Assembly (NCBI RefSeq): GCF_964355755.1
Contig: NC_092674.1
Coordinates: forward strand, 19,592,001 to 19,656,000
Source: Antedon mediterranea
Lineage: Eukaryota; Animalia; Echinodermata
Direction of reading: 5' to 3'
DNA: 64,000 nucleotides
Part shown: positions 35,108 to 64,000 of the stretch, piece by piece
How positions within the stretch are numbered: the first letter of the stretch is position 1
Layout of the letters: each line of letters begins with the position of its first letter
The notes under the pieces: model-generated
Told to the model about the DNA's origin: nothing
Databases searched by the model: none
Seen by the model: only the letters and a program-made list of their open reading frames with translations
Translations under genes and position numbers: made by a program

Positions 35108-35374
35108 TTTTTACTCGGGGTACCCGAGTCTAGGACTTACTCATTTTCTCCTCCTCCATCTGGACACTATTGAGTAAAAAGTGCGATTTTTAAAGTACTA
35201 CTCCTCCATTATTAGTTGTAGTATTGAGCTGGGATTTGGCATGAATATACTACAGGGACATGTCCTCAAAGCTATAGAGCCGGATTTTTAATTTTTTGTT
35301 AATTAATTTGTTTAATTAAGAAGCCACAATGTGTGACACACACCACAGCGTTATGTAGTTATATGGTTATATGC

Positions 35375-35447
35375 GGCTTCTTGGCGTAGTGGTTATCACG
35401 TTTGCTTAACACGCAGAAGGTACCTGGTTCGAGCCCGGACGAAACCT
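35375..35447 (+). pseudogene. tRNA-Val(AAC)-derived sequence
   Basis: GGCTTCTTGGCGTAGTGGTTATCACGTTTGCTTAACACGCAGAAGGTACCTGGTTCGAGCCCGGACGAAACC plus TTTTT; A and B boxes intact, stem mismatches present. Confidence 0.8.
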
Positions 35448-35662
35448 TTTTGTTTAAACTTTATGGTGAAAAGTACTGTATACGCAATATGATAATTATA
35501 CACAGTATATCTTATTTTTATTATTTTTTTAAATACTTATTTTGTGTAATCGGTAATTATCACTTTTACACATGTTTATTTTTCTTTGTGCTTATTACCA
35601 TATTTATTTGTAATTTAAATGGATTAAAAAACTTTCTGTAACCCACATTTTTAGTGTAAGTG

Positions 35663-35734
35663 GGTTTCGTAGTGTAGTGATTGTCAAGTCTGCTTAACAC
35701 GCAGAAGGTCCCGGTTAGAACCCTGGCGAAACCT
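35663..35734 (+). pseudogene. tRNA-Val(AAC)-derived sequence
   Basis: GGTTTCGTAGTGTAGTGATTGTCAAGTCTGCTTAACACGCAGAAGGTCCCGGTTAGAACCCTGGCGAAACC; perfect acceptor stem, damaged B box. Confidence 0.75.
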
Positions 35735-35875
35735 ATTTTTCTTTAACTTTAACTGTATACGTCTATATACAGCTTCTTTCTCTGTACCCCGAGTATTGCA
35801 CATTCGTGCTTTTTAGGTTATATGCATGATATGCATATAACCTCTTGATTCTGTCAAAATCTTTATTTATTTATT

Positions 35876-35923
35876 AGGTTATATGCATGATATGCATATA
35901 ACCTCTTGATTCTGTCAGAATCT

Positions 35924-35962
<39 letters not shown>

Positions 35963-37313
35963 TTCTTTCCTTAGCACTATTTGTCCGTCAATTATCTTGA
36001 TATCAGTTTCATCTAACTAAGTCAATTTTTCAGAGTATATTCCTTATGGCCAGGAATCGATGTGGTTATGTTTTCACGGTGCGCAATCAAACATTACGCG
36101 GTCTACGCGCGATTTAACGAAATCACGTTTGTAATCATATCTTCACAAGCATGAATCACTTTTAAACAAAATTTGGTACTCATAAATTTCAGGTCATATT
36201 TCATCATATGGCAATACAATTACGTGCGTAGCGCATATAACGCATGCGTACGCGCGCTTAAAATGTTCAAAATTGTCAGAATATATTTTCGATGAAATTA
36301 GAGTACGTTTCAGGCAATTTTAAGCGTTTAAAAATTGCCATAAGTGCGCAGATTTTTGCACGCGCACTGCGCGTCAAACGTTATTGCGCACTGTTTTTGT
36401 CCGATTACTGTTGTATAACCTTTCTTTAACAATATCATCATATTGTATTAACTTTTCAAAGCCAAACAGCGTTATACGAGTACGTCAAAAGTGACAGGCT
36501 ACGCACGTGTAAGTTAACAAAATGGTGAAAATATGCTAAATTTTAAAATTAATATATATCGTTAGAATGCTCGGGAACACCGATTTTTTATTTCATTTTC
36601 TTGAAGTGTATGTATCATATGTATGATTTATTATCAAATAAAGAGAACAAAAGTTGATTAAGTCATCATTAATGGCATATTAAATTTACAAAAATTAATT
36701 TCGACAATCAAACAAATTATACAATTTTCTTAGGCCGAAATAACAAACTTAACATTAACTTTCTTCCTTAAGAAGTTCATATATTAAAGTTAAAAAGTAT
36801 ATAGTTTGACAGTGCATCATTTTTAAAAATCTTTAAAGATGTCATCTTAGTAAAACATTATAATTCATTACGGTATGTAATAATCTATCTGCACCAAAGT
36901 GGTTACTGCATAGTAAATACACGGAGGAATATTTCCATATTTTTTAGTCAGTTGTGTATGGCTCGGTGGTCTTTGCTCGTGTCTATAGCATTTAAGGTAC
37001 CGAGTTCGAGTCTCACCTTGGGAAACGAAACAAAATAAGATTTTTTTTTATTATCCGTATTGTTTGTTCAATTGTATTTCTTAGTGTATAGATTACACAA
37101 AATGTGGTTTATGACATTATATACGCAGAAGGATCTTTGATCGGATTATGATACCGGCTATTGTATTTGCGTTAGCAAGATCCTATCATATATTATAAAT
37201 AACTAAAGATTCTGAGAAAATCAATCAATCAAAATATCTTAAATCAATCAATTATCTTTATTTAAATCAATGCATATAACCTATAATTCGTCATAGTGAC
37301 GAATTAAATCTAG
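35876..37313 (+). mobile_element. Family A element, uninterrupted copy
   Basis: 5' palindrome aggttatatgcat-gat-atgcatataacct, (TTTA)n, body, 3' subTIR atgcatataacct, hairpin taattcgtca-tag-tgacgaatta, end CTAG; TT flanks. Confidence 0.9.
36952..37025 (+). promoter_or_regulatory. tRNA-like Pol III A/B-box module in family A (present in every complete A body)
   Basis: A box TGGCTCGGTGG (36959) and B-box/T-loop GAG-TTCGAGT-CTC (37002) at tRNA spacing; most other copies have GAGATCGAG. Confidence 0.55.
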
Positions 37314-37315
37314 TT

Positions 37316-37623
37316 AGGTTATATGCATGATATGCATATAACCTCTTGATTCTGTCAAAATCTTTATTTATTAGGTTATATGCATTATCATGCATATAAC
37401 CTCTTGATTCTGTCAAAATCTTTATTAGGTTATATGCATGATATGCATATAACCTCTTGATTCTGTCAAAATCTTTATTTATTTATTTATTAGGTTATAT
37501 GCATTATCATGCATATAACCTCTTGATTCTGTCAAAATCTTTATTTATTAGGTTATATGCATGATATGCATATAACCTCTTGATTCTGTCAAAATCTTTA
37601 TTTATTTATTTATTTATTTATTT
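37316..37623 (+). repeat. Stack of five family A 5' heads
   Basis: Five copies of aggttatatgcat(gat/tatc)atgcatataacctcttgattctgtcaaaatc separated by partial (TTTA)n; loop order GAT, TATC, GAT, TATC, GAT. Confidence 0.95.
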
Positions 37624-40454
37624 ATTCTTTCCTTAGCACTATTTTGTCCGTGCATTATCTTGGCATCAGTTTAATCTAGCTAAGTCAAGTTTTCAGAGTA
37701 TATTCCTCATGGCCAGGTATCGATGTGGTTATATTTTCACGATGCGTAATCAAAAATTACGCGGTCTACGCGCGATTTTACGAAATCACGTTTGTAATCA
37801 TATCTTCACAAGCATGAATCACAATTAAACAAAATTTGGTACTCATAAATTTCAGGTCATATTTCATCATATGGCAATACAATTACGTGCGTAGCGCATA
37901 TAACGCTTGCGTACGCGCGCTTAAAATGTTCAAAATTGTCAAAATTTATTTTCGATGAAATTAGAGTACGTTTCAGGCAATTTTAAGCGTTTAAAAAATT
38001 GCCATGAGTGCGCAGATTTTTGCACGCGCACTGCGCGTTATACGTTAATGCGCACTCTTTTTGTCCGATTTCGGTTTTACAACCTTTCTTTAATAATATC
38101 ATCATATTTTATTCACTTTTCAACGCGTAATTGCCTTATACGAGCACGTCAAAAGTGACAGGCTACGCACGTGTAAGTTAACAAAATGGTGAAAATATGC
38201 TAAATTTTAAAATTAATATAGATCGTCAGAATGCTCGGGAACACATATTTTTTATTTCATTTTCTTGAAGTGTATGTATCTTATGTATGATTTATTATTA
38301 AACTAAGGGAACAAAAGTTGATTAAGCCATAATTAATTGCATATTAAATTTAAAAAAAATCATTTCGACAATCAAACAAATTATGACATTTTCTTAGGCC
38401 AAAATAACAAACTTAACATTAACTTTCTTCCTCCAAAAGTTCATATATTAAAGTTAAAAGTATATAGTTTGACAGTGCATCATTTTTGTACATTTTTAGA
38501 GATGTCATCATAGTAAAAAATTATAATTCATTGCGGTATGTAATAATCTATCTGCACCAAAGTGGTTACTGCATAGTAAATACACGGAGGAATTTTTCTA
38601 CAATTTTTAGACAGTTGTGTATGGCTCGGTGGTGTGTGCTCGTGTCTATGGCACTCAAGGTACCGAGATCGAGTCTCACCTTGGGAAACGAAATAAGATT
38701 TTTTTTTTATTATCCGTATTGTTTGTTCAAATTTATTTCTTAGTGTATAGATTATACACATGATTTATAATGAAATCTAGATAAAAATTAACTTATGTCT
38801 TTATTATTATGTAACAACAAATGTGGTTTATGACATTATACGCATATGGATCTTTGATCGGATTGTGATACCGGCTATGGTGTTCGCGTTAGCAAGGTCC
38901 TATCATATATTATAAATAATTAAAGATTCTGAGAAAATCAATCAATCAATATATCTTTTAAAAATCAATTATCTTGATTTAAATCAATGCATATAACCTA
39001 TAATTCGTCATAGTGACGAATTAAATCTAGTTTATTTATTCTTTCCTTAGCACTATTTTGTCCGTGAATTATCTTGATATCAGTTTCATCTATCTAAGTC
39101 AATTTTTCAGAGTATATTCCTTATGGCCAGGAATCGATGTGGTTATATTTTCACGATGCGTAATCAAAAATTACGCGGTCTACGCGCGATTTTACGAAAT
39201 CACGTTTGTAATCATATCTTCACAAGCATGAATCACAATTAAACAAAATTTGGTACTCATAAATTTCAGGTCATATTTCATCATATGGCAATACAATTAC
39301 GTGCGTAGCGCATATAACGCTTGCGTACGCACGCTTAAAATGTTCAAAATTGTCAAAATTTATTTTCGATGAAATTAGAGTACGTTTCAGGCAATTTTAA
39401 GCGTTTAAAAAATTGCCATGAGTGCGCAGATTTTTGCACGCGCACTGCGCGTTATACGTTAATGCGCACTCTTTTTGTCCGATTTCGGTTGTACAACCTT
39501 TCTTTAATAATATCATCATATTTTATTCACTTTTCAACGCGTAATTGCCTTATACGAGCACGTCAAAAGTGACAGGCTACGCACGTGTAAGTTAACAAAA
39601 TGGTGAAAATATGCTAAATTTTAAAATTAATATAGATCGTCAGAATGCTCGGGAACACGTATTTTTTATTTAATTTTCTTGAAGTGTATGTATCTTATGT
39701 ATGATTTATTATTAAACTAAGGGAACAAAAGTTGATTAAGCCATAATTAATTGCATATTAAATTAAAAAAAATTCATTTCGACAATCAAACAAATTATGA
39801 CATTTTCTTAGGCAAAAATAACAAACTTAACATTAACTTTCTTCCTTCAAAAGTTCATATATTAAAGTTAAAAGTATATAGTTTGACAGTGCATCATTTT
39901 TGTACATTTTTAGAGATGTCATCATAGTAAAAAATTATAATTCATTGCGGTATGTAATAATCTATCTGCACCAAAGTGGTTACTGCATAGTAAATACACG
40001 GAGGAATTTTTCTACAAATTTTAGTCAGTTGTGTATGGCTCGGTGGTGTGTGCTCGTGTCTATGGCACTCAAGGTACCGAGATCGAGTCTCACCTTGGGA
40101 AATGAAATAATTTTTTTTTTTTATTATCCGTATTGTTTGTTCAAATTTATTTCTTAGTGTATATATTATACACATGATTTATAATGAAATCTAGATAAAA
40201 AATAACTTATGTCTTTATTATTATGTAACAGCAAATGTGGTTTATGACATTATACGCAGAGGGATCTTTGATCGGATTGTGATACCGGCTATTGTATTCG
40301 CGTTAGCAAGGTCCTATCATATATTATATATTATTTAAAGAATCTGACAAAATCAATGAATCAAAATATCTTTTAAAAATCAATTATCTTTATTTTAATT
40401 ATCAATGCATATAACCTATAATTCGTCATAGTGACGAATTAAATCTAGTTTATT

Positions 40455-41938
40455 AGGTTATATGCATGATATGCATATAACCTCTTGATTCTGTCAAAAT
40501 CTTTATTTATTTATTTATTTATTTATTTATTCTTTCCTTAGCACTATTTGTCCGTGAATTATCTTGGCATCAGTTTCATCTATCTAAGTCAATTTTTCAG
40601 AGTATATTCCTTATGGCCAGGAATCGATGTGGTTATGTTTTCACGATGCGCAATCAAAAATTACGCGGTCTACGCGCGATTTAACGAAATCACGTTTGTA
40701 ATCATATCTTCACAAACATGAATCACTTTTAAACAAAATTTGGTACTCATAAATTTCAGGTCATATTTCATCATATGGCAATACAATTACGTGCGTAGCG
40801 CATATAACGCATGCGTACGCGCGCTTAAAATGTTGAAAATTGTCAGAATTTATTTTCGATGAAATTAGAGTACGTTTCAGGCAATTTTAAGCGTTTAAAA
40901 AATTGCCATGAGTGCGCAGATTTTTGCACGCGCACTGCGCGTCAAACGTTAATGCGCACTCTTTTTGTCCGATTACTGTTGTGTAACCTTTCTTTAATAA
41001 TATCATCATATTTTATTCACTTTTCAACGCGAAACAGCGTTATACGAGCACGTCAAAAGTGACGGGCTACGCACGTGTAAGTTAACAAAATGGTGAAAAT
41101 ATGCTAAATTTTAAAATTAATATATATCGTTAGAATGCTCGGGAACACATATTTTTTATTTAATTTTCTTGAAGTGTATGTATCTTATGTATGATTTATT
41201 ATTAAACTAAGGGAACAAAAGTTGATTAAGCCATAATTAATTGCATATTAAATTAAAAAAAATTCATTTCGACAATCAAACAAATTATGACATTTTCTTA
41301 GGCCAAAATAACAAACTTAACATTAACTTTCTTCCTTCAAAAGTTCATATATTAAAGTTAAAAGTATATAGTTTGACAGTGCATCATTTTTGTACATTTT
41401 TAGAGATGTCATCATAGTAAAAAATTATAATTCATTGCGGTATGTAATAATCTATCTGCACCAAAGTGGTTACTGCATAGTAAATACACGGAGGAATTTT
41501 TCTACAATTTTTAGTCAGTTGTGTATGGCTCGGTGGTGTGTGCTCGTGTCTATGGCACTCAAGGTACCGAGATCGAGTCTCACCTTGGGAAACGAAATAA
41601 ATTTTTTTTTTTATTGTCCGTATTGTTTGTTCAAATTTATTTCTTAGTGTATATATTATACACATGATTTATAATGAAATCTAGATAAAAAATAACTTAT
41701 GTCTTTATTATTATGTAACAGCAAATGTGGTTTATGACATTATACGCAGAGGGATCTTTGATCGGATTGTGATACCGGCTATTGTATTCACGTTAGCAAG
41801 GTCCTATCATATATTATATATTATTTAAAGAATCTGAGAAAATCAATGAATCAAAATATCTTTTAAAAATAAATTATCTTTATTTTAATTATCAATGCAT
41901 ATAACCTATAATTCGTCATAGTGACGAATTAAATCTAG
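40455..41938 (+). mobile_element. Family A element, uninterrupted copy
   Basis: Head, (TTTA)n, body, then subTIR, hairpin and CTAG. Confidence 0.9.
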
Positions 41939-41942
41939 TTTA

Positions 41943-43561
41943 TTGGTTATCCGCCTCAAGCGGATAACCTTTGTTATTGTAGTGTTTCTTTTTTTTTTTT
42001 ATTATTCTTCTTTCTTTCCGCCACTTTTGTTCGCGACGTTTCTCTTCAACGTGTTAACATAACACGTTGTAACTTGGTCAACATTTAGACATTTAACTGA
42101 AGTTGTGCAGCCAAGCTTTTGGACGCTGTCAGATACGCGTAGCGTAAGTTACGCGCGATTTTCTGAAAATCTTAAATCGGTCATAACTTCAAAACCGATA
42201 AATATTTTTTAACGAAGTTTTCAGCCACGTTTTCTTCACATCAATGGCTAACTTTTTCGATCTCTACCAAATTTTTGGAGACTAGAAAATTTTCGCGTAA
42301 ATTGCGTTTGAAATTTAAAAATTCTCCAAATTTGTACACGCTGTTTCTCTGCAACGCGTTAACATAACATGTTGTAACTTGGTCAACATTTTGACATCTA
42401 ACTGAAATTGTGCAGCCAAGCTTTTGGACGCTGTCAGAGGCGCGTATCGTAAGTTACGCGCGATTTTCTGAAAATCTTAAATTGATCATAACTTTGAAAC
42501 AGATAAATATTTTTTAACGTAATTTTCAGCCACGTTTGCTTCACATCAATTGTTAACTTTTTTAACCCTAACGAATTTTGTAACATTCGAAAGTGCGCGC
42601 GTAAACGACGTTTGAAGTTTTAAAATGCTTGAAATTAATTTCTGATTAAATTAGAGCACGATTCAGGTCATTTTAAGCGTTTAAAAAATTGCCACTGGTG
42701 CGCACATTTTTACGCGCGCACGGCGCAGGGAACGCGTATGAGCATTTCTTTTACACGATTTATGTTTTTACATCTTTGGTTAACAATTTTACGTTATTTT
42801 ATTCACTATTCAACTTGAAATGGCATTCTACGAGCACGTTAAACATGACTGGTTGCGCAGAAAAACGTCAAAAAATTGTGAAAATGTTGCAAAATATGTC
42901 TACTTTTTAAAACGATACAGTTCATCAGAATGCAAGGTTACCCCTATTTTTTATTTTTATTTCTTGCAGTTTATGAATCATAGATCTGATTTATAATAAT
43001 TTTTAATGTTAAAACGTGTTTGCTGGCTACACTATTTGCATATTAAATATAATTTTGGAAATTGTTATCATCAAACAAACGATAACATTTTCAAAGAGCA
43101 AAACAATAGACATAACTGTTATATTTTTTCTTCACATGTTAATATATAAAACTTGAAAGTATGCTCTTTCATAATATGTCACTGTTTAAAATTTATGAAG
43201 ATTTCATCATAGTAAAAATTATGATTTAGTTCGATATGTAATAATCAACTTGCATCGAGGGAGTTCACGACATACCGAACGAACGAGTAATCTTTCTTCG
43301 GATTATCTTCGGCAGGTGCTCATATGACTCGATGTGTAGTGCAACCGACTTTGGTATCAGAGGTACCGGGATCGAGTCCCGTCACGGGAAAACAATTAAA
43401 TATAAGGATTTATTTGGTTGTTACACTGAAAAGGCAGTTTTAATTTCGAATAGGCTACTTTTTTGGAAAAGCCAAAAACTGAAAAGTACTTGAATGCTCA
43501 AGATATGTTTTGTTGCGGGCGGATAACCAAACTTGTCCTCAAGTGACGAGTTCAGATCTAG
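41943..43561 (+). mobile_element. Family B element, uninterrupted (most diverged B copy)
   Basis: 5' palindrome ggttatccgc-ctcaa-gcggataacc, poly-T, ~300-bp internal direct repeat, 3' subTIR gcggataaccaa, hairpin aacttgtc-ctcaagt-gacgagtt, end CTAG. Confidence 0.9.
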
Positions 43562-46442
43562 TTTATTTATTCTTTCCTTAGCACTATTTTGTCCGTGCAT
43601 TATCTTGGCATCAGTTTAATCTAGCTAAGTCAAGTTTTCAGAGTATATTCCTCATGGCCAGGAATCGATGTGGTTATATTTTCACGATGCGTAATCAAAA
43701 ATTACGCGGTCTACGCGCGATTTTACGAAATCACGTTTGTAATCATATCTTCACAAGCATGAATCACAATTAAACAAAATTTGGTACTCATAAATTTCAG
43801 GTCATATTTCATCATATGGCAATAAAATTACGTGCGTAGCGCATATAACGCTTGCGTACGCGCGCTTAAAATGTTCAAAATTGTCAAAATTTATTTTCGA
43901 TGAAATTAGAGTACGTTTCAGGCAATTTTAAGCGTTTAAAAAATTGCCATGAGTGCGCAGATTTTTGCACGCGCACTGCGCGTTAAACGTTAATGCGCAC
44001 TCTTTTTGCCCGATTTCTGTTTTACAATCTTTCTTTAATAATATCATCATATTTGATTCAGGTTTCAACTCGAAATTGCGTTATACGAGCACGTCAAAAG
44101 TGACTGGCTACGCACGTATAAGTTAACAAAATGGTGAAAATATGCTAAATTTTAAAATTAATATATATCATCAGAATGCAGGGGAACACCTATTTTTTAT
44201 TTCATTTTCTTGAAGTGTATGTATCATATGTATGATTTATTATCAAATAAAGAGAACAAAAGTTGATTAAGTCATCATTAATTGCATATTAAATTTTTAA
44301 AAAATAATTTCGACAACCAAACAAATTATGACATTTTCTTAGGCCAAAATAACAAACTTAACATTAACTTTCTTCCTTCAAAAATTTTATATATTAAAGT
44401 TAAAAGTATGTAGTTTGACAGTGCATCATTTGTATACATTTTAAAGATGTCATCATAGTAAAAAATTATAATTCATTTCGGTATGTAATAATCTATTTGC
44501 ATCAAAGTGGTTACTGCATAGTAATTACACGGAGGAATTTTTCTACAACTTTTAGTCAGTTGTGTACGGCTCGGTGGTCTGTGCTCGTGTCTATGGCATT
44601 CAAGGTACCGAGATCGAGTCTCACCTTGGGAAACGAAATAAGATTTTTTTTTTATTATCCGTATTGTTTGTTCAAATTTATTTCTTAGTGTATAGATTAT
44701 ACACATGATTTATAATGAAATCTAGATAAAAATTAACTTATGTCTATATTATTATGTAACAACAAATGTGGTTTATGACATTATACGCATATGGATCTTT
44801 GATCGGATTGTGATACCGGCTATGGTGTTCGCGTTAGCAAGGTCCTATCATATATTATAAATAATTAACGATTCTGAGAAAATCAATCAATCAATATATC
44901 TTTTAAAAATCAATTATCTTTATTTAAATCAATGCATATAACCTATAATTCGTCATAGTGACGAATTAAATCTAGTTTATTTATTCTTTCCTTAGCACTA
45001 TTTGTCCGTGAATTATCTTGGCATCAGTTTCATCTATCTAAGTCAATTTTTCAGAGTATATTCCTTATGGCCAGGAATCGATGTGGTTATGTTTTCACGA
45101 TGCGCAATCAAAAATTACGCGGTCTACGCGCGATTTAACGAAATCACGTTTGTAATCATATCTTCACAAACATGAATCACTTTTAAACAAAATTTGGTAC
45201 TCATAAATTTCAGGTCATATTTCATCATATGGCAATACAATTACGTGCGTAGCGCATATAACGCATGCGTACGCGCGCTTAAAATGTTGAAAATTGTCAG
45301 AATTTATTTTCGATGAAATTAGAGTACGTTTCAGGCAATTTTAAGCGTTTAAAAAATTGCCATGAGTGCGCAGATTTTTGCACGCGCACTGCGCGTCAAA
45401 CGTTAATGCGCACTCTTTTTGTCCGATTACTGTTGTGTAACCTTTCTTTAATAATATCATCATATTTTATTCACTTTTCAACGCGAAACAGCGTTATACG
45501 AGCACGTCAAAAGTGACGGGCTACGCACGTGTAAGTTAACAAAATGGTGAAAATATGCTAAATTTTAAAATTAATATATATCGTTAGAATGCTCGGGAAC
45601 ACATATTTTTTATTTAATTTTCTTGAAGTGTATGTATCTTATGTATGATTTATTATTAAACTAAGGGAACAAAAGTTGATTAAGCCATAATTAATTGCAT
45701 ATTAAATTAAAAAAAATTCATTTCCACAATCAAACAAATTATGACATTTTCTTAGGCCAAAATAACAAACTTAACATTAACTTTCTTCCTTCAAAAGTTC
45801 ATATATTAAAGTTAAAAGTATATAGTTTGACAGTGCATCATTTTTGTACATTTTTAGAGATGTCATCATAGTAAAAAATTATAATTCATTGCGGTATGTA
45901 ATAATCTATCTGCACCAAAGTGGTTACTGCATAGTAAATACACGGAGGAATTTTTCTACAATTTTTAGTCAGTTGTGTATGGCTCGGTGGTGTGTGCTCG
46001 TGTCTATGGCACTCAAGGTACCGAGATCGAGTCTCACCTTGGGAAACGAAATAAATTTTTTTTTTTATTGTCCGTATTGTTTGTTCAAATTTATTTCTTA
46101 GTGTATATATTATACACATGATTTATAATGAAATCTAGATAAAAAATAACTTATGTCTTTATTATTATGTAACAGCAAATGTGGTTTATGACATTATACG
46201 CAGAGGGATCTTTGATCGGATTGTGATACCGGCTATTGTATTCACGTTAGCAAGGTCCTATCATATATTATATATTATTTAAAGAATCTGAGAAAATCAA
46301 TGAATCAAAATATCTTTTAAAAATAAATTATCTTTATTTTAATTATCAATGCATATAACCTATAATTCGTCATAGTGACGAATTAAATCTAGTTAGGTTA
46401 TATGCATGATATGCATATAACCTCTTGATTCTGTCAGAATCT

Positions 46443-46481
<39 letters not shown>

Positions 46482-52350: not shown

Positions 52351-52575
52351 AGGTTATATGCATTATCATGCATATAACCTCTTGATTCTGTCAAAATCTT
52401 TATTAGGTTATATGCATTATCATGCATATAACCTCTTGATTCTGTCAAAATCTTTATTAGGTTATATGCATTATCATGCATATAACCTCTTGATTCTGTC
52501 AAAATCTTTATTAGGTTATATGCATTATCATGCATATAACCTCTTGATTCTGTCAAAATCTTTATTTATTTATTT
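52351..52575 (+). repeat. Stack of four identical family A heads (TATC loop, 54-bp period)
   Basis: Heads at 52351, 52405, 52459 and 52513, followed by four consecutive bodies of the matching gtgaattatcttgatatc subfamily. Confidence 0.95.
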
Positions 52576-55500
52576 ATTCTTTCCTTAGCACTATTTTGTC
52601 CGTGAATTATCTTGATATCAGTTTCATCTATTTAAGTCAATTTTTCAGAGTATATTCCTTATGGCCAGGAATCGATGTGGTTATATTTTCACGATGCGTA
52701 ATCAAAAATTACGCGGTCTACGCGCGATTTTACGAAATCACGTTTGTAATCATATCTTCACAAGCATGAATCACAATTAAACAAAATTTGGTACTCATAA
52801 ATTTCAGGTCATATTTCATCATATGGCAATACAATTACGTGCGTAGCGCATATAACGCTTGCGTACGCGCGCTTAAAATGTTCAAAATTGTCAAAATTTA
52901 TTTTCGATGAAATTAGAGTACGTTTCAGGCAATTTTAAGCGTTTAAAAAATTGCCATGAGTGCGCAGATTTTTGCACGCGCACTGCGCGTTATACGTTAA
53001 TGCGCACTCTTTTTGTCCGATTTCGGTTGTACAACCTTTCTTTAATAATATCATCATATTTTATTCACTTTTCAACGCGTAATTGCCTTATACGAGCACG
53101 TCAAAAGTGACAGGCTACGCACGTGTAAGTTAACAAAATGGTGAAAATATGCTAAATTTTAAAATTAATATAGATCGTCAGAATGCTCGGGAACACATAT
53201 TTTTTATTTCATTTTCTTGAAGTGTATGTATCTTATGTATGATTTATTATTAAACTAAGGGAACAAAAGTTGATTAAGCCATAATTAATTGCATATTAAA
53301 TTAAAAAAAATTCATTTCGACAATCAAACAAATTATGACATTTTCTTAGGCCAAAATAACAAACTTAACATTAACTTTCTTCCTCCAAAAGTTCATATAT
53401 TAAAGTTAAAAGTATATAGTTTGACAGTGCATCATTTTTGTACATTTTTAGAGATGTCATCATAGTAAAAAATTATAATTCATTGCGGTATGTAATAATC
53501 TATCTGCACCAAAGTGGTTACTGCATAGTAAATACACGGAGGAATTTTTCTACAATTTTTAGACAGTTGTGTATGGCTCGGTGGTGTGTGCTCGTGTCTA
53601 TGGCACTCAAGGTACCGAGATCGAGTCTCACCTTGGGAAACGAAATAAGATTTTTTTTTTATTATCCGTATTGTTTGTTCAAATTTATTTCTTAGTGTAT
53701 ATATTATACACATGATTTATAATGAAATCTAGATAAAAAATAACTTATGTCTTTATTATTATGTAACAGCAAATGTGGTTTATGACATTATACGCAGAGG
53801 GATCTTTGATCGGATTGTGATACCGGCTATTGTATTCGCGTTAGCAAGGTCCTATCATATATTATAAATAATTAAAGAATCTGAGAAAATCAATGAATCA
53901 AAATATCTTTTAAAAATCAATTATCTTTATTAAAATCAATGCATATAACCTATAATTCGTCATAGTGACGAATTAAATCTAGTTTATTTATTCTTTCCTT
54001 AGCACTATTTTGTCCGTGAATTATCTTGATATCAGTTTCATCTATCTAAGTCAATTTTTCAGAGTATATTCCTTATGGCCAGGAATCGATGTGGTTATAT
54101 TTTCACGATGCGTAATCAAAAATTACGAGGTCTACGCGCGATTTTACGAAATCATGTTTGTAATCATATCTTCACAAGCATGAATCACAATTAAACAAAA
54201 TTTGGTACTCATAAATTTCAGGTCATATTTCATCATATGGCAATACAATTACGTGCGTAGCGCATATAACGCTTGCGTACGCGCGCTTAAAATGTTCAAA
54301 ATTGTCAAAATTTATTTTCGATGAAATTAGAGTACGTTTCAGGCAATTTTAAGCGTTTAAAAAATTGCCATGAGTGCGCAGATTTTTGCACGCGCACTGC
54401 GCGTTATACGTTAATGCGCACTCTTTTTGTCCGATTTCGGTTGTACAACCTTTCTTTAATAATATCATCATATTTTATTCACTTTTCAACGCGTAATTGC
54501 CTTATACGAGCACGTCAAAAGTGACAGGCTACGCACGTGTAAGTTAACAAAATGGTGAAAATATGCTAAATTTTAAAATTAATATAGATCGTCAGAATGC
54601 TCGGGAACACATATTTTTTATTTAATTTTCTTGAAGTGTATGTATCTTATGTATGATTTATTATTAAACTAAGGGAACAAAAGTTGATTAAGCCATAATT
54701 AATTGCATATTAAATAAAAAAAAATTCATTTCGACAATCAAACAAATTATGACATTTTCTTAGGCCAAAATAACAAACTTAACATTAACTTTCTTCCTTC
54801 AAAAGTTCATATATTAAAGTTAAAAGTATATAGTTTGACAGTGCATCATTTTTGTACATTTTTAGAGATGTCATCATAGTAAAAAATTATAATTCATTGC
54901 GGTATGTAATAATCTATCTGCACCAAAGTGGTTACTGCATAGTAAATACACGGAGGAATTTTTCTACAATTTTTAGTCAGTTGTGTATGGCTCGGTGGTG
55001 TGTGCTCGTGTCTATGGCACTCAAGGTACCGAGATCGAGTCTCACCTTGGGAAACGAAATACATTTTTTTTTTATTATCCGTATTGTTTGTTCAAATTTA
55101 TTTCTTAGTGTATATATTATACACATGATTTATAATGAAATCTAGATAAAAAATAACTTATGTCTTTATTATTATGTAACAGCAAATGTGGTTTATGACA
55201 TTATACGCAGAGGGATCTTTGATCGGATTGTGATACCGGCTATTGTATTCGCGTTAGCAAGGTCCTATCATATATTATATATTATTTAAAGAATCTGAGA
55301 AAATCAATGAATCAAAATATCTTTTAAAAATAAATTATCTTTATTTTAATTATCAATGCATATAACCTATAATTCGTCATAGTGACGAATTAAATCTAGT
55401 TTATTTATTCTTTCCTTAGCACTATTTTGTCCGTGAATTATCTTGATATCAGTTTCATCTATCTAAGTCAATTTTTCAGAGTATATTCCTTATGGCCAGA

Positions 55501-58500
55501 AATCGATGTGGTTATATTTTCACGATGCGTAATCAAAAATTACGCGGTCTACGCGCGATTTTACGAAATCACGTTTGTAATCATATCTTCACAAGCATGA
55601 ATCACAGTTAAACAAAATTTGGTACTCATAAATTTCAGGTCATATTTCATCATATGGCAATACAATTACGTGCGTAGCGCATATAACGCTTGCGTACGCG
55701 CGCTTAAAATGTTCAAAATTGTCAAAATTTATTTTCGATGAAATTAGAGTACGTTTCAGGCAATTTTAAGCGTTTAAAAAATTGCCATGAGTGCGCAGAT
55801 TTTTGCACGCGCACTGCGCGTTATACGTTAATGCGCACTCTTTTTGTCCGATTTCGGTTGTACAACCTTTCTTTAATAATATCATCATATTTTATTCACT
55901 TTTCAACGCGTAATTGCCTTATACGAGCACGTCAAAAGTGACAGGCTACGCACGTGTAAGTTAACAAAATGGTGAAAATATGCTAAATTTTAAAATTAAT
56001 ATAGATCGTCAGAATGCTCGGGAACACATATTTTTTATTTAATTTTCTTGAAGTGTATGTATCTTATGTATGATTTATTATTAAACTAAGGGAACAAAAG
56101 TTGATTAAGCCATAATTAATTGCATATTAAATTAAAAAAAATTCATTTCGACAATCAAACAAATTATGACATTTTCTTAGGCCAAAATAACAAACTTAAC
56201 ATTAACTTTCTTCCTTCAAAAGTTCATATATTAAAGTTAAAAGTATATAGTTTGACAGTGCATCATTTTTGTACATTTTTAGAGATGTCATCATAGTAAA
56301 AAATTATAATTCATTGCGGTATGTAATAATCTATCTGCACCAAAGTGGTTACTGCATAGTATTTACACGGAGGAATTTTTCTACGATTTTTAGTCAGTTG
56401 TGTATGGCTCGGTGGTGTGTGCTCGTGTCTATGGCACTCAAGGTACCGAGATCGAGTCTCACCTTGGGAAACGAAATAAACTTTTTTTTTTATTATCCGT
56501 ATTGTTTGTTCAAATTTATTTCTTAGTGTATATATTATACACATGATTTATAATGAAATCTAGATAAAAAATAACTTATGTCTTTATTATTATGTAACAG
56601 CAAATGTGGTTTATGACATTATACGCAGAGGGATCTTTGATCGGATTGTGATACCGGCTATTGTATTCGCGTTAGCAAGGTCCTATCATATATTATATAT
56701 TATTTAAAGAATCTGAGAAAATCAATGAATCAAAATATCTTTTAAAAATAAATTATCTTTATTTTAATTATCAATGCATATAACCTATAATTCGTCATAG
56801 TGACGAATTAAATCTAGTTTATTTATTCTTTCCTTAGCACTATTTTGTCCGTGAATTATCTTGATATCAGTTTCATCTATCTAAGTCAATTTTTCAGAGT
56901 ATATTCCTTATGGCCAGGAATCGATGTGGTTATATTTTCACGATGCGTAATCAAAAATTACGCGGTCTACGCGCGATTTTACGAAATCACGTTTGTAATC
57001 ATATCTTCACAAGCATGAATCACAATTAAACAAAATTTGGTACTCATAAATTTCAGGTCATATTTCATCATATGGCAATACAATTACGTGCGTAGCGCAT
57101 ATAACGCTTGCGTACGCGCGCTTAAAATGTTCAAAATTGTCAAAATTTATTTTCGATGAAATTAGAGTACGTTTCAGGCAATTTTAAGCGTTTAAAAAAT
57201 TGCCATGAGTGCGCAGATTTTTGCACGCGCACTGCGCGTTATACGTTAATGCGCACTCTTTTTGTCCGATTTCGGTTGTACAACCTTTCTTTAATAATAT
57301 CATCATATTTTATTCACTTTTCAACGTGTAATTGCCTTATACGAGCACGTCAAAAGTGACAGGCTACGCACGTGTAAGTTAACAAAATGGTGAAAATATG
57401 CTAAATTTTAAAATTAATATAGATCGTCAGAATGCTCGGGAACACATATTTTTTATTTCATTTTCTTGAAGTGTATGTATCTTATGTATGATTTATTATT
57501 AAACTAAGGGAACAAAAGTTGATTAAGCCATAATTAATTGCATATTAAATTTAAAAAAATTCATTTCGACAATCAAACAAATTATGACATTTTCTTAGGC
57601 CAAAATAACAAACTTAACATTAACTTTCTTCCTCCAAAAGTTCATATATTAAAGTTAAAAGTATATAGTTTGACAGTGCATCATTTTTGTACATTTTTAG
57701 AGATGTCATCATAGTAAAAAATTATAATTCATTGCGGTATGTAATAATCTATCTGCACCAAAGTGGTTACTGCATAGTAAATACACGGAGGAATTTTTCT
57801 ACAATTTTTAGACAGTTGTGTATGGCTCGGTGGTGTGTGCTCGTGTCTATGGCACTCAAGGTACCGAGATCGAGTCTCACCTTGGGAAACGAAATAAGAT
57901 TTTTTTTTTATTATCCGTATTGTTTGTTCAAATTTATTTCTTAGTGTATATATTATACACATGATTTATAATGAAATCTAGATAAAAAATAACTTATGTC
58001 TTTATTATTATGTAACAGCAAATGTGGTTTATGACATTATACGCAGAGGGATCTTTGATCGGATTGTGATACCGGCTATTGTATTCGCGTTAGCAAGGTC
58101 CTATCATATATTATAAATAATTAAAGAATCTGAGAAAATCAATGAATCAAAATATCTTTTAAAAATAAATTATCTTTATTTTAATTATCAATGCATATAA
58201 CCTATAATTCGTCATAGTGACGAATTAAATCTAGTTTATTTATTCTTTCCTTAGCACTATTTTGTCCGTGCATTATCTTGGCATCAGTTTCATCTAGCTA
58301 AGTCAAGTTTTCAGAGTATATTCCTTATGGCCAGGAATCGATGTGGTTATATTTTCACGATGCGTAATCAAAAATTACGCGGTCTACGCGCGATTTTACG
58401 AAATCACGTTTGTAATCATATCTTCACAAGCATGAATCACAATTAAACAAAATTTGGTACTCATAAATTTCAGGTCATATTTCATCATATGGCAATTAAA

Positions 58501-59653
58501 TTACGTGCGTAGCGCATATAACGCTTGCGTACGCGCGCTTAAAATGTTCAAAATTGTCAAAATTTATTTTCGATGAAATTAGAGTACGTTTCAGGCAATT
58601 TTAAGCGTTTAAAAAATTGCCATGAGTGCGCAGATTTTTGCACGCGCACTGCGCGTTAAACGTTAATGCGCACTCTTTTTGCCCGATTTCTGTTTTACAA
58701 TCTTTCTTTAATAATATCATCATATTTGATTCAGGTTTCAACTCGAAATTGCGTTATACGAGCACGTCAAAAGTGACTGGCTACGCACGTATAAGTTAAC
58801 AAAATGGTGAAAATATGCTAAATTTTTAAATTAATATATATCGTCAGAATGCAGGGGAACACCTATTTTTTATTTCATTTTCTTGAAGTGTATGTATCAT
58901 ATGTATGATTTATTATCAAATTAAGAGAACAAAAGTTGATTAAGTCATCATTAATTGCATATTAAATTAAAAAAACATAATTTCGACAATCAAACAAATT
59001 ATGACATTTTCTTAGGCCAAAATAACAAACTTAACATTAACTTTCTTCCTTCAAAAATTCATATATTAAAGTTAAAAGTATGTAGTTTGACAGTGCATCA
59101 TTTGTATACATTTTAAAGATGTCATCATAGTAAAAAATTATAATTCATTTCGGTATGTAATAATCTATTTGCATCAAAGTGGTTACTGCATAGTAAATAC
59201 ACGGAGGAATTTTTCTACAACTTTTAGTCAGTTGTGTACGGCTCGGTGGTCTGTGCTCGTGTCTATGGCATTCAAGGTACCGAGATCGAGTCTCACCTTG
59301 GGAAACGAAATAAGATTTTTTTTTTATTATCCGTATTGTTTGTTCAAATTTATTTCTTAGTGTATATATTATACACATGATTTATAATGAAATCTAGATA
59401 AAAATTAACTTATGTCTTTATTATTATGTAACAACAAATGTGGTTTATGACATTATACGCATATGGATCTTTGATCGGATTGTGATACCGGCTATGGTGT
59501 TCGCGTTAGCAAGGTCCTATCATATATTATAAATAATTAAAGATTCTGAGAAAATCAATCAATCAATATATCTTTTAAAAATCAATTATCTTTATTTAAA
59601 TCAATGCATATAACCTATAATTCGTCATAGTGACGAATTAAATCTAGTTTATT

Positions 59654-59930
59654 AGGTTATATGCATTATCATGCATATAACCTCTTGATTCTGTCAAAAT
59701 CTTTATTTATTGGTTATCCGCCTCAAGCGGATAACCTTTGTTATTGTAGTGTTACTTTTTTTTTAGGTTATATGCATTATCATGCATATAACCTCTTGAT
59801 TCTGTCAAAATCTTTATTTATTTATTGGTTATCCGCCTCAAGCGGATAACCTTTGTTATTGTAGTGTTACTTTTTGGTTATCCGCCTCAAGCGGATAACC
59901 TTTGTTATTGTAGTGTTACTTTTTTTTTTT
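59654..59930 (+). repeat. Mixed head stack A-B-A-B-B
   Basis: A 59654, B 59710, A 59765, B 59825, B 59874; followed by bodies B (59931), B (61501) and A (63070). Confidence 0.95.
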
Positions 59931-61492
59931 ATTATTCTTCTTTCTTTCTCCGATTTTGTGTACGCGTTTTCTCTTGAACGTGTTAACATAACATTTTGTA
60001 ACTTGGTCAACATATAGACAATTAACTGAAGATGTACTGCGAAGCTTTTTGACAATGTCAGATCCGCGTAGCGTAAGTTACGCGCGATTTTCTGAAAATC
60101 TTAAATCGGTCATAACTTCGAAACCGATAAATATTTTTTAACGAAATTTTCAGCCACGTTTTCTTCACATCAATGGCTAACTTTTTCGCTCTTCAGCAAA
60201 TTTTTGAACACTAGAAAGTCTGCGCGTAAACTGCGTTTGAAATTTTAAAATGCTCCTAATTTGTGCACGCTGTTTCTCTGTAACGCGTTAACATAACATT
60301 TTGTAACTTGTTCAACATATAGACATTTTACTGAAGTTGTCCAGCCAAGCTTTTTGACGATGTCAGAGCCGCGTAGCGTAAGTTACGCGTGATTTTCTGA
60401 AAATCTTAAATTGGTTATAACTTCGAAACAAATGAATATTTTTTAACGTCATTTTCAGCCACGTTTGCTTCACATCAATAGTTAACTTTTTTAACGCTAT
60501 CGCAATTTGTAACATTAGAAAGTGCGCGCGTAAATGGCGTTTGAAATTTTAAAATGCTTCAAATCAATTTCTGATTAAATTAGAGCACGATTCAGGTCAT
60601 TTTAAGCGTTTAAAAAATTGCCACTGGTGCGCACATTTTTACGCGCGCACGGCGCAGGGAACAGGTATGAGCATTTCTTTTACACGATTTGTGTTTTTAA
60701 ATCTTCTGTTAACAATTTTACGTTATTTTATTCACTTTTCAACTTGAAATGGCGTTCTACGAGCACGTTAAACATGACAGGTTGCGCACGAAAACGTCAA
60801 CAAATTGTGAAAATGTTCCAAAATATGTCTACTTTTAAAAATGACACAGTTCATCAGAATGCAAGGTTACCCCCATTTTTTATTTTAATTTCTTGCAGTG
60901 TATGAATCATAGGTCTGATTTATTATAGTGTTGAATGCTAAAACGTGTTTGATGGCTACATTATTTGCATATTAAATATAATTTTTGAAATATTTATCAT
61001 CAAACAAACATAAACTTATTCAAAGAGCAAAACAATAAACATAACATTTATCTTTTTTCTTTACATGTTAATATATAAAACTTGAAAGTATGTACTTTCA
61101 TAAAATATCAGCGTTTAAAATTTTTGAAGATTTCATCATAGTAAAATTTATGATTTAAGTTTGATATGTAATAATCAACTTGCATCGAGGGGGTTCACGA
61201 CATACCGAATGAACGAGGACTCTTTCTTCGGATTTTCGTCAGCAGGTGGTCATATGGCTCGATGTGTAATGCAACCGACTTTGGTATCAGAGGTACCGGG
61301 TTCGAGTCCCGTCACGGGAAAACAATTAATTAAAAGGGTTTAGTTGGTTATTACACTGAGAGGGCAGTTTTAATTTTGAATAGCCTACTTTTTTTGGAAA
61401 AGTCATAACTTGGAAGTACTTGAATACGCAAGATACGCTTTGTTGCTGGCGGATAACCAAACTCGTCCTCAAGTGACGAGTTTAAGTTCTAG
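59874..61492 (+). mobile_element. Family B element, uninterrupted innermost copy, inserted in the poly-T of another B
   Basis: Preceded by a B head ending gttacttttt; followed by a T run and a B body (61501-63062). Confidence 0.9.
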
Positions 61493-64000
61493 TTTTTTTT
61501 ATTATTCTTCTTTCTTTCTCGGATTTTGTGTACGCGTTTTCTCTTTAACGTGTTAACATAACATGTTGTAACTTCGTCAACATATAGACATTTAACTGAA
61601 GATGTACTGCGAAGCTTTTTGACAATGTCAGATCCGCGTAGCGTAAGTTACGCGCGATTTTCTGAAAATCTTAAATCGGTCATAACTTCGAAACCGATAA
61701 ATATTTTTTAACGAAATTTTCAGCCACGTTTTCTTCACATCAATGGCTAACTTTTTCGCTCTTCAGCAAATTTTTGAACACTAGAAAGTCTGCGCGTAAA
61801 CTGCGTTTGAAATTTTAAAATGCTCCTAATTTGTGCACGCTGTTTCTCTGTAACGCGTTAACATAACATTTTGTAACTTGTTCAACATATAGACATTTTA
61901 CTGAAGTTGTCCAGCCAAGCTTTTTGACGATGTCAGAGCCGCGTAGCGTAAGTTACGCGTGATTTTCTGAAAATCTTAAATTGGTTATAACTTCGAAACA
62001 AATGAATATTTTTTAACGTCATTTTCAGCCACGTTTGCTTCACATCAATAGTTAACTTTTTTAACGCTATCGCAATTTGTAACATTAGAAAGTGCGCGCG
62101 TAAATGGCGTTTGAAATTTTAAAATGCTTCAAATCAATTTCTGATTAAATTAGAGCACGATTCAGGTCATTTTAAGCGTTTAAAAAATTGCCACTGGTGC
62201 GCACATTTTTACGCGCGCACGGCACAGGGAACAGGTATGAGCATTTCTTTTACACGATTTGTGTTTTTAAATCTTCTGTTAACAATTTTACGTTATTTTA
62301 TTCACTTTTCAACTTGAAATGGCGTTCTACGAGCACGTTAAACATGACAGGTTGCGCACGAAAACGTCAACAAATTGTGAAAATGTTCCAAAATATGTCT
62401 ACTTTTAAAAATGACACAGTTCATCAGAATGCAAGGTTACCCCCATTTTTTATTTTAATTTCTTGCAGTGTATGAATCATAGGTCTGATTTATTATAGTG
62501 TTGAATGCTAAAACGTGTTTGATGGCTACATTATTTGCATATTAAATATAATTTTTGAAATATTTATCATCAAACAAACATAAACTTATTCAAAGAGCAA
62601 AACAATAAACATAACATTTATCTTTTTTCTTTACATGTTAATATATAAAACTTGAAAGTATGTACTTTCATAAAATATCAGCGTTTAAAATTTTTGAAGA
62701 TTTCATCATAGTAAAATTTATGATTTAAGTTTGATATGTAATAATCAACTTGCATCGAGGGGGTTCACGACATACCGAATGAACGAGGACTCTTTCTTCG
62801 GATTTTCGTCAGCAGGTGGTCATATGGCTCGATGTGTAATGCAACCGACTTTGGTATCAGAGGTACCGGGTTCGAGTCCCGTCACGGGAAAACAATTAAT
62901 TAAAAGGGTTTAGTTGGTTATTACACTGAGAGGGCAGTTTTAATTTTGAATAGCCTACTTTTTTTGGAAAAGTCATAACTTGGAAGTACTTGAATACGCA
63001 AGATACGCTTTGTTGCTGGCGGATAACCAAACTCGTCCTCAAGTGACGAGTTTAAGTTCTAGTTTATTTATTCTTTCCTTAGCACTATTTTGTCCGTGAA
63101 TTATCTTGATATCAGTTTCATCTATTTAAGTCAATTTTTCAGAGTATATTCCTTATGGCCAGGAATCGATGTGGTTATATTTTCACGATGCGTAATCAAA
63201 AATTACGCGGTCTACGCGCGATTTTACGAAATCACGTTTGTAATCATATCTTCACAAGCATGAATCACAATTAAACAAAATTTGGTACTCATAAATTTCA
63301 GGTCATATTTCATCATATGGCAATACAATTACGTGCGTAGCGCAAATAACGCTTGCGTACGCGCGCTTAAAATGTTCAAAATTGTCAAAATTTATTTTCG
63401 ATGAAATTAGAGTACGTTTCAGGCAATTTTAAGCGTTTAAAAAATTGCCATGAGTGCGCAGATTTTTGCACGCGCACTGCGCGTTATACGTTAATGCGCA
63501 CTCTTTTTGTCCGATTTCGGTTGTACAACCTTTCTTTAATAATATCATCATATTTTATTCACTTTTCAACGCGTAATTGCCTTATACGAGCACGTCAAAA
63601 GTGACAGGCTACGCACGTGTAAGTTAACAAAATGGTGAAAATATGCTAAATTTTAAAATTAATATAGATCGTCAGAATGCTCGGGAACACATATTTTTTA
63701 TTTCATTTTCTTGAAGTGTATGTATCTTATGTATGATTTATTATTAAACTAAGAGAACAAAAGTTGATTAAGCCATAATTAATTGCATATTAAATTAAAA
63801 AAAATTCATTTCGACAATCAAACAAATTATGACATTTTCTTAGGCCAAAATAACAAACTTAACATTAACTTTCTTCCTCCAAAAGTTCATATATTAAAGT
63901 TAAAAGTATATAGTTTGACAGTGCATCATTTTTGTACATTTTTAGAGATGTCATCATAGTAAAAAATTATAATTCATTGCGGTATGTAATAATCTATCTG

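Follow-up and report, generated by a model that had tools for sequence, protein, structure and literature searches.

A satellite-like array of two HINE-like transposon families in Antedon mediterranea, probably built by repeated self-insertion

Positions 35815–64000 of the window (the whole 64,000-nucleotide stretch of Antedon mediterranea DNA analysed here) are occupied by a ~28 kb array of two small non-coding transposon families, designated A and B. We consider it probable (roughly 0.8) that the array was built by about 20 separate insertions, each into the T-rich tract that follows the 5' hairpin of a copy already present. A sequence-only reading of the same DNA had described each element as a head, a T-rich tract and a body ending in a subTIR, a hairpin and CTAG, and this anatomy was found in both families. 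Tokenising the window recovered 20 heads (15 A and 5 B; h1–h20) and 19 bodies (15 A and 4 B; b1–b19), with the heads in exactly the stacks that had been claimed, of 2, 5, 1, 1, 2, 4 and 5 (Table 1). The A bodies are 1350–1409 bp long, except for the last one, which is cut to 929 bp by the window end, and the four B bodies are 1561–1563 bp. Together with 449 bp of T-rich spacer, the tokens account for 28,186 of the 28,186 bp of the array, which begins inside the 3' T-run of a host element, C. All copies are co-oriented, as had been noted: the minus strand of the window yielded no 3' half of a head, no body start and no tail. Likewise, the leftover of the right tract type that was said to precede each headless body is present just before 12 of the 12 bodies without an adjoining head (TTTA units for 11 A bodies, T8 for one B body).

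Table 1. Coordinates of the host element, head stacks, bodies and example tails in the window (Ga, Ta and Gg, head variants; W, X, Y and Z, clades of A bodies).
Feature	Position	Strand	Remark
Host element C	35108..35814	+	second member of a tandem HINE-like pair; has a palindromic head, a subTIR, a weak hairpin at the 3' end and T5
Stack 1: A heads h1 (Ga, 35815), h2 (Gg, 35876)	35815..35963	+	tracts of 3 and 10 TTTA units
b1, A body, clade W	35964..37313	+	1350 bp with internal deletion; adjoins h2
Stack 2: A heads h3–h7 (Ga, Ta, Ga, Ta, Ga)	37316..37625	+	at 37316, 37373, 37427, 37492, 37550
b2, mosaic A body	37626..39030	+	both ends clade X, middle mostly clade Y; adjoins h7
b3, headless A body, clade Y	39040..40448	+	pairs with h6 (Ta)
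h8 (Ga) + b4, complete A element	40455..41938	+	7-unit tract; b4 is clade Z (5' half W-like, 3' half Y)
h9 + b5, complete B element	41945..43561	+	divergent variant B1; T12 tract
b6, headless A body, clade X	43571..44975	+	
b7, headless A body, clade Z	44985..46392	+	1 substitution from b4; misfit with h4 (Ta) in strict parse
Stack 5: A head h10 (Gg), then B head h11 (46484)	46395..46538	+	10 TTTA units; T11
b8, B body	46539..48101	+	adjoins h11
b9, headless A body, clade W	48111..49511	+	pairs with rare Gg head h10 across B element
b10, headless A body, clade X	49525..50927	+	
b11, headless A body, clade Y	50941..52344	+	2 substitutions from b12
Stack 6: Ta heads h12–h15	52351..52577	+	all four identical; 54-bp period
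b12–b15, four A bodies, clade Y	52578..58234	+	at 52578, 53992, 55409, 56827; 6–16 substitutions apart
b16, headless A body, clade X	58244..59647	+	unmatched in strict parse
Stack 7: h16–h20 (A, B, A, B, B)	59654..59930	+	at 59654, 59712, 59765, 59827, 59876
b17 + b18, B bodies	59931..63062	+	at 59931, 61501; 6 substitutions apart; leftover T8 precedes b18
b19, A body, clade Y	63072..64000	+	incomplete at window end
Example A tail	41895..41938	+	13-bp subTIR complementary to head, hairpin with 10-bp stem, CTAG
Example B tail	48058..48101	+	subTIR complementary to head, hairpin, CTAG

By anatomy, A and B resemble HINE/DINE-1 elements, the non-autonomous Helentrons of the HLE2 group. Their subTIRs are 13–14 bp in A and 10–12 bp in B, compared with about 11–16 bp for that group, the tail copy being complementary to the head, and a microsatellite lies near the 5' end, (TTTA)n in A and poly-T in B. 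The hairpins of both families fold far better than shuffled sequences (z from -3.2 to -7.7), with z of about -7 for the head hairpins (13 bp in A, 10 bp in B), -4.2 for the tail stem-loop of A (0 of 200 shuffles as good) and -3.2 for that of B (2 of 200). B carries a 305-bp internal duplication; self-comparison of A gave no internal tandem repeat. None of the 22 ORFs of at least 120 aa in the window lies beyond position 31794. A canonical Helitron (HLE1) was rejected because the 5' TC start without inverted repeats and the A/T insertion were not found; A and B start with T(T) plus the subTIR, also sit after G and within poly-T, and share only the hairpin-CTAG end with HLE1. A classical satellite does not agree with two families, irregular head placement and neighbours that are seldom nearest relatives. 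A B-box-like motif seen by eye near the 3' third raised the idea of a tRNA-derived segment in A and B, which was dropped, as Rfam returned no tRNA in one A copy even at an E value of 5 and none in the array at 0.1.

All 19 internal insertion points lie within the spacer, and none in 26,804 bp of body containing 3,869 TT sites. At least two T precede each of the 19 internal heads, and TT follows each of the 18 complete tails. Outside poly-T, 17 of 17 heads share one junction register, with two T ahead of the head and TT behind the tail. Insertion at TT, as originally proposed, was correct in that these junctions lie in TT or T-rich DNA, but a plain TT or ATTT target cannot explain the choice of site. 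Of 14 internal T9–12 runs in A bodies none was hit, whereas two of B's five head-side T tracts were (p = 0.058).

The pieces of split tracts add up to roughly the intact length: the B tract comes to 5 + 8 - 2 = 11 (intact 11, 11 and 12), the Ta tracts to 3, 4, 3, 3, 3 and 5 (intact 4), the Ga tracts to 6, 5 and 8 (intact 7 and 7) and the Gg tract to 12 (intact 10). The head-side tract is shortened at 12 of 13 interrupted heads. Every insertion lengthens the tract by two T and no longer duplication is present, so the supposed lack of a target site duplication is valid only if these two T are the element's own. In the available text on DINE-1, such letters are argued to be the element's own ends (PMC2374699); here, the added letters may be the element's end letters or a TT duplication. 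Leftovers before A bodies measure 9 nt in 9 of 11 cases and 13 nt in two, never less. A requirement for one or more TTTA units on the 3' side of the cut was rejected, since simulated 9-nt leftovers reached a fraction of 0.29 (5–95% range, 0.08–0.56) against the 9 of 11 seen, whereas a requirement for two or more units, chosen post hoc, reproduced them (0.62; 0.33–0.89). This simple simulation fits the leftovers and the largest stack but yields ~10.5 stacks, compared with the 7 seen.

Heads and bodies were paired in last-in-first-out order and compared through a map of head variants to body clades (Ga with X or Z, Ta with Y, Gg with W), which was learnt from the seven adjacent pairs within the array, not from dispersed copies. 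Nine of the 11 non-adjacent pairs agreed in variant and all 11 in A/B type; first-in-first-out pairing, which gave 9 of 11 in type, was ruled out by its variant agreement of 4 of 11. The concordance was better than random, as the sequence-only reading had implied, with p = 0.0023 in a global shuffle, p = 0.0125 without the uniform block of four Ta heads (6 of 8 pairs agreeing) and p = 0.020 when all heads were shuffled within stacks (16 of 18 pairs). The Gg head h10 meets its W body over a whole B element, h2 (Gg) meets a W body directly, and the bodies after stack 7 run B, B, A, the order predicted by last-in-first-out. Nevertheless, the order-only test, i.e., shuffling within stacks with the innermost head fixed, was not significant (p = 0.17; p = 0.22 after the repair described below), and the pairing signal therefore comes largely from which variants occur where.

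The bracket-matching order proposed for the array is supported by the nine matching pairs, but in the strict parse two of 11 pairs are mismatched, the A body at 58244 has no partner and three spacers lack an open head. Three of 65 parses, in which two of b6, b7 and b10 are set aside, are free of both mismatches and orphan spacers. This repair was picked after seeing the data; global shuffles with the same freedom reach a clean parse in 0.00055 of cases. The repaired parse moves body b11 from h1 (Ga), with which it clashed under strict matching, to h4 (Ta), with which it agrees; there the tract of h5 sums to 13. Repairs by one body were discarded, as the best of them (b11) still leaves one mismatch and one orphan spacer. 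The parse requires one or two further heads, of Ga type, which appear to have been lost.

A Helentron-type Rep/helicase encoded elsewhere likely drives the A and B insertions. Each new copy would enter the tract just behind an earlier head, leaving the heads stacked and the bodies in mostly last-in-first-out order, by a cut that likely requires a T-rich tract to extend ~9 nt 3' of it. Co-orientation would be forced if only one strand of the target is recognised and every copy bears the tract on its own T-rich strand. If each insertion splits one tract and adds a new one, potential insertion sites would become more numerous and growth of the locus would speed up with its length. Later slippage between TTTA tracts likely deleted the one or two heads. 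Repeated co-oriented insertion behind an earlier head is thus supported by the pairing, the tract sums and the 19 of 19 sites, and is weakened by the order-only test and by the need for lost heads.

We regard it as quite unlikely that the array grew by local amplification, in which heads multiplied by slippage of a 54–61 bp unit and bodies by unequal crossover, the bracket pattern being a by-product of composition. Such amplification would suit the four identical heads at a 54-bp period, the head dimers at periods of 123 and 115, the nearest-relative status of b13 and b14, the one and two substitutions separating b4 from b7 and b11 from b12, and the mosaic bodies, as well as the result of the order-only test and the head and body counts, which are not exactly balanced. 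However, the eight tail-to-body neighbour pairs of family A differ by 0.7–6.0% and just one of them consists of nearest relatives; four of the other seven differ by 4.3–6.0%. Amplification also gives no reason for the re-summing of tracts, the pairing of h10 with a W body across B, or heads A, B, A, B, B followed by bodies B, B, A. Private substitutions (0–40 per body) give inner copies no clear youth: compared with their hosts, 5–6 have fewer, 3–5 more and 0–2 equal numbers, depending on the parse. The mosaic bodies, likely produced by conversion or template switching, show that recombination or conversion has also acted, and an account by nesting only is therefore too clean. The earlier contrast of nesting with unequal crossover is accepted for the nesting but not as a strict alternative.

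Also unlikely is that multi-head or multi-body blocks were made elsewhere, by composite transposition or rolling-circle bypass, and inserted whole. According to the accessible parts of the reports, Fusarium copies with several 5' ends do transpose (PMC5148889) and maize Helitrons with several 3' ends come from nested intermediates (PMC3288121), and a block of one head and several bodies could explain the extra bodies without head loss. Nevertheless, no multi-token block recurs near-identically; the flanks of near-identical bodies differ, and the identity of the closest pairs ends at the element ends. A concatemer would give head-body-head-body or one truncated unit repeated, not reversed matched variants, and composites would first require nesting. 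A false array assembled from reads of many dispersed copies we consider highly improbable. In favour of such an artefact, the family occurs in very many copies, and contigs from four sequencing runs never span a whole element, but a misjoin would not yield private substitutions in the bodies, rule-like spacers, a 17 of 17 register and variants matched over kilobases; the window contains no N. Among ten matching runs, these four, each with about half or more of the query words, come from one sample, possibly the source; runs X1–X6 hold small shares of the words. In that sample, 10,947 and 3,310 contigs align to a reference made of an A element and a B head, the alignment leaving out the head region, and they show a large, variable family. 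As expected of dispersed copies, 22 contigs of run X8 extend past the tail into mixed flanks. Exact search of metagenome contigs gave 0 loci each for the A-head and B-head motifs. Several active source copies at other genomic sites likely supplied the incoming copies.

If nested insertion built the array, self-insertion goes from an occasional event to a builder of satellite-like DNA, and a target carried within the element would add a fourth route from transposable element to satellite, with a parseable signature. The array would expose the target rule of HLE2 transposases (strand, register and T-rich tract length), for which the literature, in its accessible parts, gives a TT/T-rich preference only. 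In genome annotations, arrays of this kind will be labelled 1.4-kb satellites, 54-bp minisatellites or truncated copies, and will mislead copy counts and age estimates. The surprise is limited, because the parts and the basic event, Helitron self-insertion, are already known; the matched, array-building form would be the new aspect. We suggest only tentatively, and with somewhat less than even confidence, that a carried target is a general route to Helentron satellite-like arrays in animals, in which incoming copies are steered to the tract by the resident 5' hairpin and not by T-rich DNA as such, the cue is common to two families, the array's growth accelerates itself and the activity of source copies is dated by the bracket order. 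The sparing of the internal T9–12 runs in A bodies favours this reading.

Self-targeting retroelements, such as Zepp of Chlorella and DIRS-1 of Dictyostelium, form co-oriented clusters by insertion into their own kind, with a chemistry different from that of A and B. HINE/DINE-1 elements are described, in the text available, as non-coding, with 12–14 bp subTIRs, a 5' inverted repeat, a 4-nt 5' microsatellite, internal repeats, a 3' stem-loop and TT/T-rich targets (PMC4067079, PMC2374699, PMC7492417). A and B share subTIRs, palindrome, microsatellite, stem-loop, target and lack of coding capacity with these elements, and B also shares internal repeats (Thomas et al. 2014; Yang and Barbash 2008; oyster Cg_HINE). 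Unlike in the accessible portions of those accounts, the microsatellite of A and B is T-rich and is itself the insertion site, the elements end in CTAG, which the literature assigns to canonical Helitrons, and stacked heads occur with matched bodies; Thomas et al. 2014 mention, in the part available, only clustering of related insertions (PMC4067079).

The literature search gave no account of matched, array-building Helitron/Helentron self-insertion. The claim that nesting at such depth is undescribed stands in that sense, but up to five 5' ends formed by Helitron self-insertion have been published. In Fusarium FoHeli (HLE2), two to five stacked 5' ends of <200 bp were explained by insertion into a preceding copy close to its 5' end (PMC5148889, Chellapan et al. 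2016; PMC13342296), and A and B are alike in stacking short 5' ends, probably via self-insertion. As far as the available text describes, FoHeli combines stacked 5' ends with a single 3' end and moves as composites, with one nested pair and one three-copy case mentioned, whereas the A/B array keeps matching bodies, six levels deep, in two families and over >28 kb. Multiple termini of maize Helitrons (canonical HLE1; PMC3288121, Dong et al. 2011) arise from nested intermediates, the internal 3' ends being damaged, and Xenopus HelenXT233 has two alternative 5' ends (HELIANO, PMC11417382). In both, nested related rolling-circle elements give repeated ends, as is probable for A and B, but the accessible text of these reports describes no carried target and no array.

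Transposable elements are reported to become satellites in three ways: by inserting twice at a duplicated target, by forming rolling-circle concatemers or by unequal exchange (PMC5932611, PMC12628747; Xiong et al. 2016 as summarised in review PMC12628747). As in these TE-derived satellites (e.g., McGurk and Barbash 2018), a site preference in active transposition would lead to satellite-like arrays of whole elements in A and B. The reported routes, in the portions available, give head-to-tail units via a duplicated target, a circle or LTR exchange, whereas in A and B the target is internal, the heads come first and the bodies follow in reversed order.

Compared with itself, the window shows a block of repeats, each 1.4-1.6 kb long, that starts near 35810 and continues to the last base. 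When this array was tokenised, it resolved into 20 palindromic heads (15 of element A and five of element B) and 19 bodies (15 A and four B), which, together with 449 bp of spacers, accounted for 28,186 of 28,186 bp. The heads (h1-h20) stand in runs of 2, 5, 1, 1, 2, 4 and 5 along the array, and every head and body (b1-b19) lies on the plus strand, reproducing the co-oriented stacks described in the sequence-only reading. None of the 22 ORFs of at least 120 aa in the window falls in the array. We regard the array as real and, with a probability of roughly 0.8, nested self-insertion as its best explanation, accompanied by later head loss and conversion. Under this mechanism, each new copy inserted into the tract behind an earlier head, leaving the heads first and the bodies in reverse order. 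The pairing of heads with bodies, the re-summed tracts and the insertion points described below support this mechanism, which had been proposed from the sequence.

The anatomy of the two non-coding elements was also as proposed. Each begins with a head hairpin (13 bp in A, 10 bp in B) and continues with a T-rich tract ((TTTA)n in A, poly-T in B) and a body; its tail consists of a subTIR whose sequence is complementary to that of the head, followed by a stem-loop and CTAG. A and B have about 800 bp in common at 69% identity, the ends not being common. A carries a degenerate second inverted repeat, in which the second hairpin of the head and the TTTA tract pair with sequence lying some 90 bp short of the 3' end; this pairing could be relevant to the choice of the tract as a target. 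Among the three A head variants (Ga, Gg and Ta), Gg has a better second hairpin than the others and the longest tract (10 units), and may be the older form. Inspection by eye also picked out a B-box-like segment common to the bodies of both elements, with a T9-12 run after it in A; a search of one A copy against Rfam gave no tRNA match.

Seven adjacent head-body pairs yielded a conflict-free map between head variants and body clades (Gg-W, Ga-X, Ga-Z, Ta-Y, and B1 and B2 with their own bodies). Last-in-first-out matching, the strict parse, fitted this map in 9 of 11 non-adjacent pairs, as opposed to 4 of 11 for first-in-first-out, albeit the map was learnt from inside the array, which is a caveat against the nesting reading. 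The fit was better than expected when non-adjacent heads were shuffled over the whole array (P = 0.0023), when the four-head block was stripped of its three pairs that match trivially because the heads are uniform (6/8, P = 0.0125), and when all heads were shuffled within stacks (16/18, P = 0.020). The anticipated concordance held against global shuffling, but was not significant for order alone: with the innermost head fixed and the rest shuffled within stacks, where possible outcomes are few, P was 0.17. Two single cases are the clearest: h10, a head of the rare Gg variant, meets a W body across an entire B element, and the stack A-B-A-B-B is followed by bodies B, B and A.

Most brackets closed as the sequence-only reading had predicted, but the strict parse left b16 without a head, two mismatches (h4-b7 and h1-b11), and TTTA spacers after b11, b15 and b16 despite no open head. 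In an exhaustive search, all of these failures disappeared once two of the bodies b6, b7 and b10 were left out (3 of 65 valid parses), h1 still being open at the window end. Because b6 adjoins b7, both surplus bodies would be explained by a single slippage event that removed two Ga heads from a stack. The repair was chosen post hoc; given the same freedom, zero mismatches arose in 0.00055 of global shuffles and 0.22 of within-stack shuffles.

An element landing in a tract should leave pieces that re-sum to the intact length. In the strict parse, the split tracts did so within microsatellite drift: 5+8-2=11 for B (intact 11, 11 and 12), 3, 4, 3, 3, 3 and 5 for Ta (intact 4), 6, 5 and 8 for Ga (intact 7 and 7), and 12 for Gg (intact 10). 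The h5 tract totals 13 in the repaired parse, a sum that would include remains of the lost heads' tracts. The head-side piece was shortened at 12 of 13 interrupted heads. All 19 internal insertion points lie in spacers, and no insertion was found within the 26,804 bp of bodies, which hold 3,869 TT and 564 ATTT sites. Exactly two T precede the head in 17/17 heads outside poly-T, and TT follows 18/18 complete tails; the tract gains two T with every insertion, which may be end letters of the element itself or a duplicated TT. Of the 11 leftover tract pieces before A bodies, nine measure 9 nt and two 13 nt. Since the 9-nt word is absent from bodies, insertion into TTTA tracts may need nothing beyond a longer sequence target. 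None of the 14 T9-12 runs inside A bodies had received an insertion, against 2/5 B head tracts (P = 0.058), which is no more than a hint that a resident head helps insertion. Co-orientation would follow if the target, which is non-palindromic, were read on one strand. Simulation of a two-unit rule reproduced the leftovers (mean 0.62 vs 0.82 seen) and the largest stack (4.5 vs 5), and gave too many stacks (10.5 vs 7).

Plain local duplication is an unlikely alternative, from which the four-head block, of all parts of the array, does least to separate nesting. The nearest relative was the neighbour in only one of eight neighbouring A body pairs, neighbours differ by 0.7-6.0% (mean 3.2%, vs 3.7% for all pairs), and the closest pairs (b4/b7, b11/b12, b11/b15 and b17/b18) have different flanks. 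Some bodies are mosaic: b2 has X sequence at its two ends and largely Y sequence in the middle, and b4 and b7 are W-like to about column 600 and then Y. Conversion or template switching has likely acted, in the array or in source copies. The contention that nesting, rather than unequal crossover, built the array is supported by the seldom-related neighbours, but the mosaic bodies make it too absolute. Age comparison gives nesting no support: depending on the parse, inner copies carry fewer private substitutions than their hosts in 5-6 cases, more in 3-5 and the same in 0-2, and are not clearly younger. This fits fast build-up from several sources, or later conversion.

The window as a whole is AT-rich repeat DNA of eukaryotic, probably animal, character, and its left half is occupied by remnants of LINE-type and LTR-type retroelements together with tRNA-like repeats. 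The tRNA-Asp-like repeat and the tRNA-Thr-like duplicate are probably tRNA-derived SINEs or pseudogenes. The 15-bp and 22-bp arrays resemble a foldback element, or one of HINE type, that has repeats at its centre. The array starts in the 3' T-run of element C, a third HINE-like element; the three families meet at T-runs there.

Positions of features in the window
Feature	Position	Remarks
LINE-type element, broken	8757-11948	endonuclease-like and reverse transcriptase frames
LTR retrotransposon, broken	12408-15853	minus strand; SCAN and zinc-knuckle gag, integrase zinc-binding, reverse transcriptase pieces
Short arrays of 154-bp and 155-bp units	20361-20733 and 24811-25315	
15-bp and 22-bp tandem arrays	27667-28621	15-bp unit oppositely oriented on two sides
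360-bp tandem repeat	31864-32677	tRNA-Asp-like units
300-bp duplicate	32676-32973 / 34462-34775	tRNA-Thr-like segment; copies flank Helitron-like element on both sides
Canonical Helitron-like non-coding element	33027-34456	TC start after A, (GTYT)n microsatellite, GC-rich hairpin, CTAG then T
Element C	34771-35814	two head-to-tail HINE-like copies (about 340 and 708 bp); palindromic head
tRNA-Val-like segments (two)	35375-35447, 35662-35735	in second C copy
Stretch within Gg heads	35902-35922, 46421-46441	
B-box-like segment	36960-37025	equivalents in each A and B body
Second inverted repeat of A	52544-52573 vs 53864-53893	30 bp, 83%

Of ten sequencing runs listed, four contained about half or more of the words, all from one sample, which may be the source of this DNA. 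With one A element and a B head as the query, compared outside the head region, 10,947 contigs of one run (X7) and 3,310 of another (X8) aligned, with many variants. Twenty-two X8 contigs extend past the TT of the tail into mixed sequence, consistent with dispersed copies. No contig in the compared runs spans the entire query stretch; the stacks are a feature of the assembled sequence.

An array of stacked heads with matched bodies was not found described in the searchable literature, outside which lie most subscription papers and Repbase reports; within it, the array-building form, with its carried target and readable order, appears undescribed. Judged from anatomy, A and B are probably HINE members, a class whose defining link is the Rep/helicase partner. 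They share with HINE/DINE-1 elements as described (PMC4067079, PMC2374699, PMC7492417, PMC11417382) the subTIRs, of which the 5' one has an inverted repeat next to it, as well as a microsatellite, a 3' stem-loop and insertion at TT. The elements and the basic event are already known. In Fusarium, FoHeli copies with several 5' ends but a single 3' end have been proposed to arise when the element inserts into itself close to its 5' end (PMC5148889), and up to five 5' ends occur (PMC13342296). Maize Helitrons with multiple termini were derived from nested intermediates (PMC3288121), a Xenopus HLE2 has two 5' ends (PMC11417382), oyster studies report shuffled loci in which parts of Helitrons sit inside other elements (reviewed in PMC12628747; PMC8268682), and McGurk and Barbash described tandems arising by double insertion (PMC5932611).
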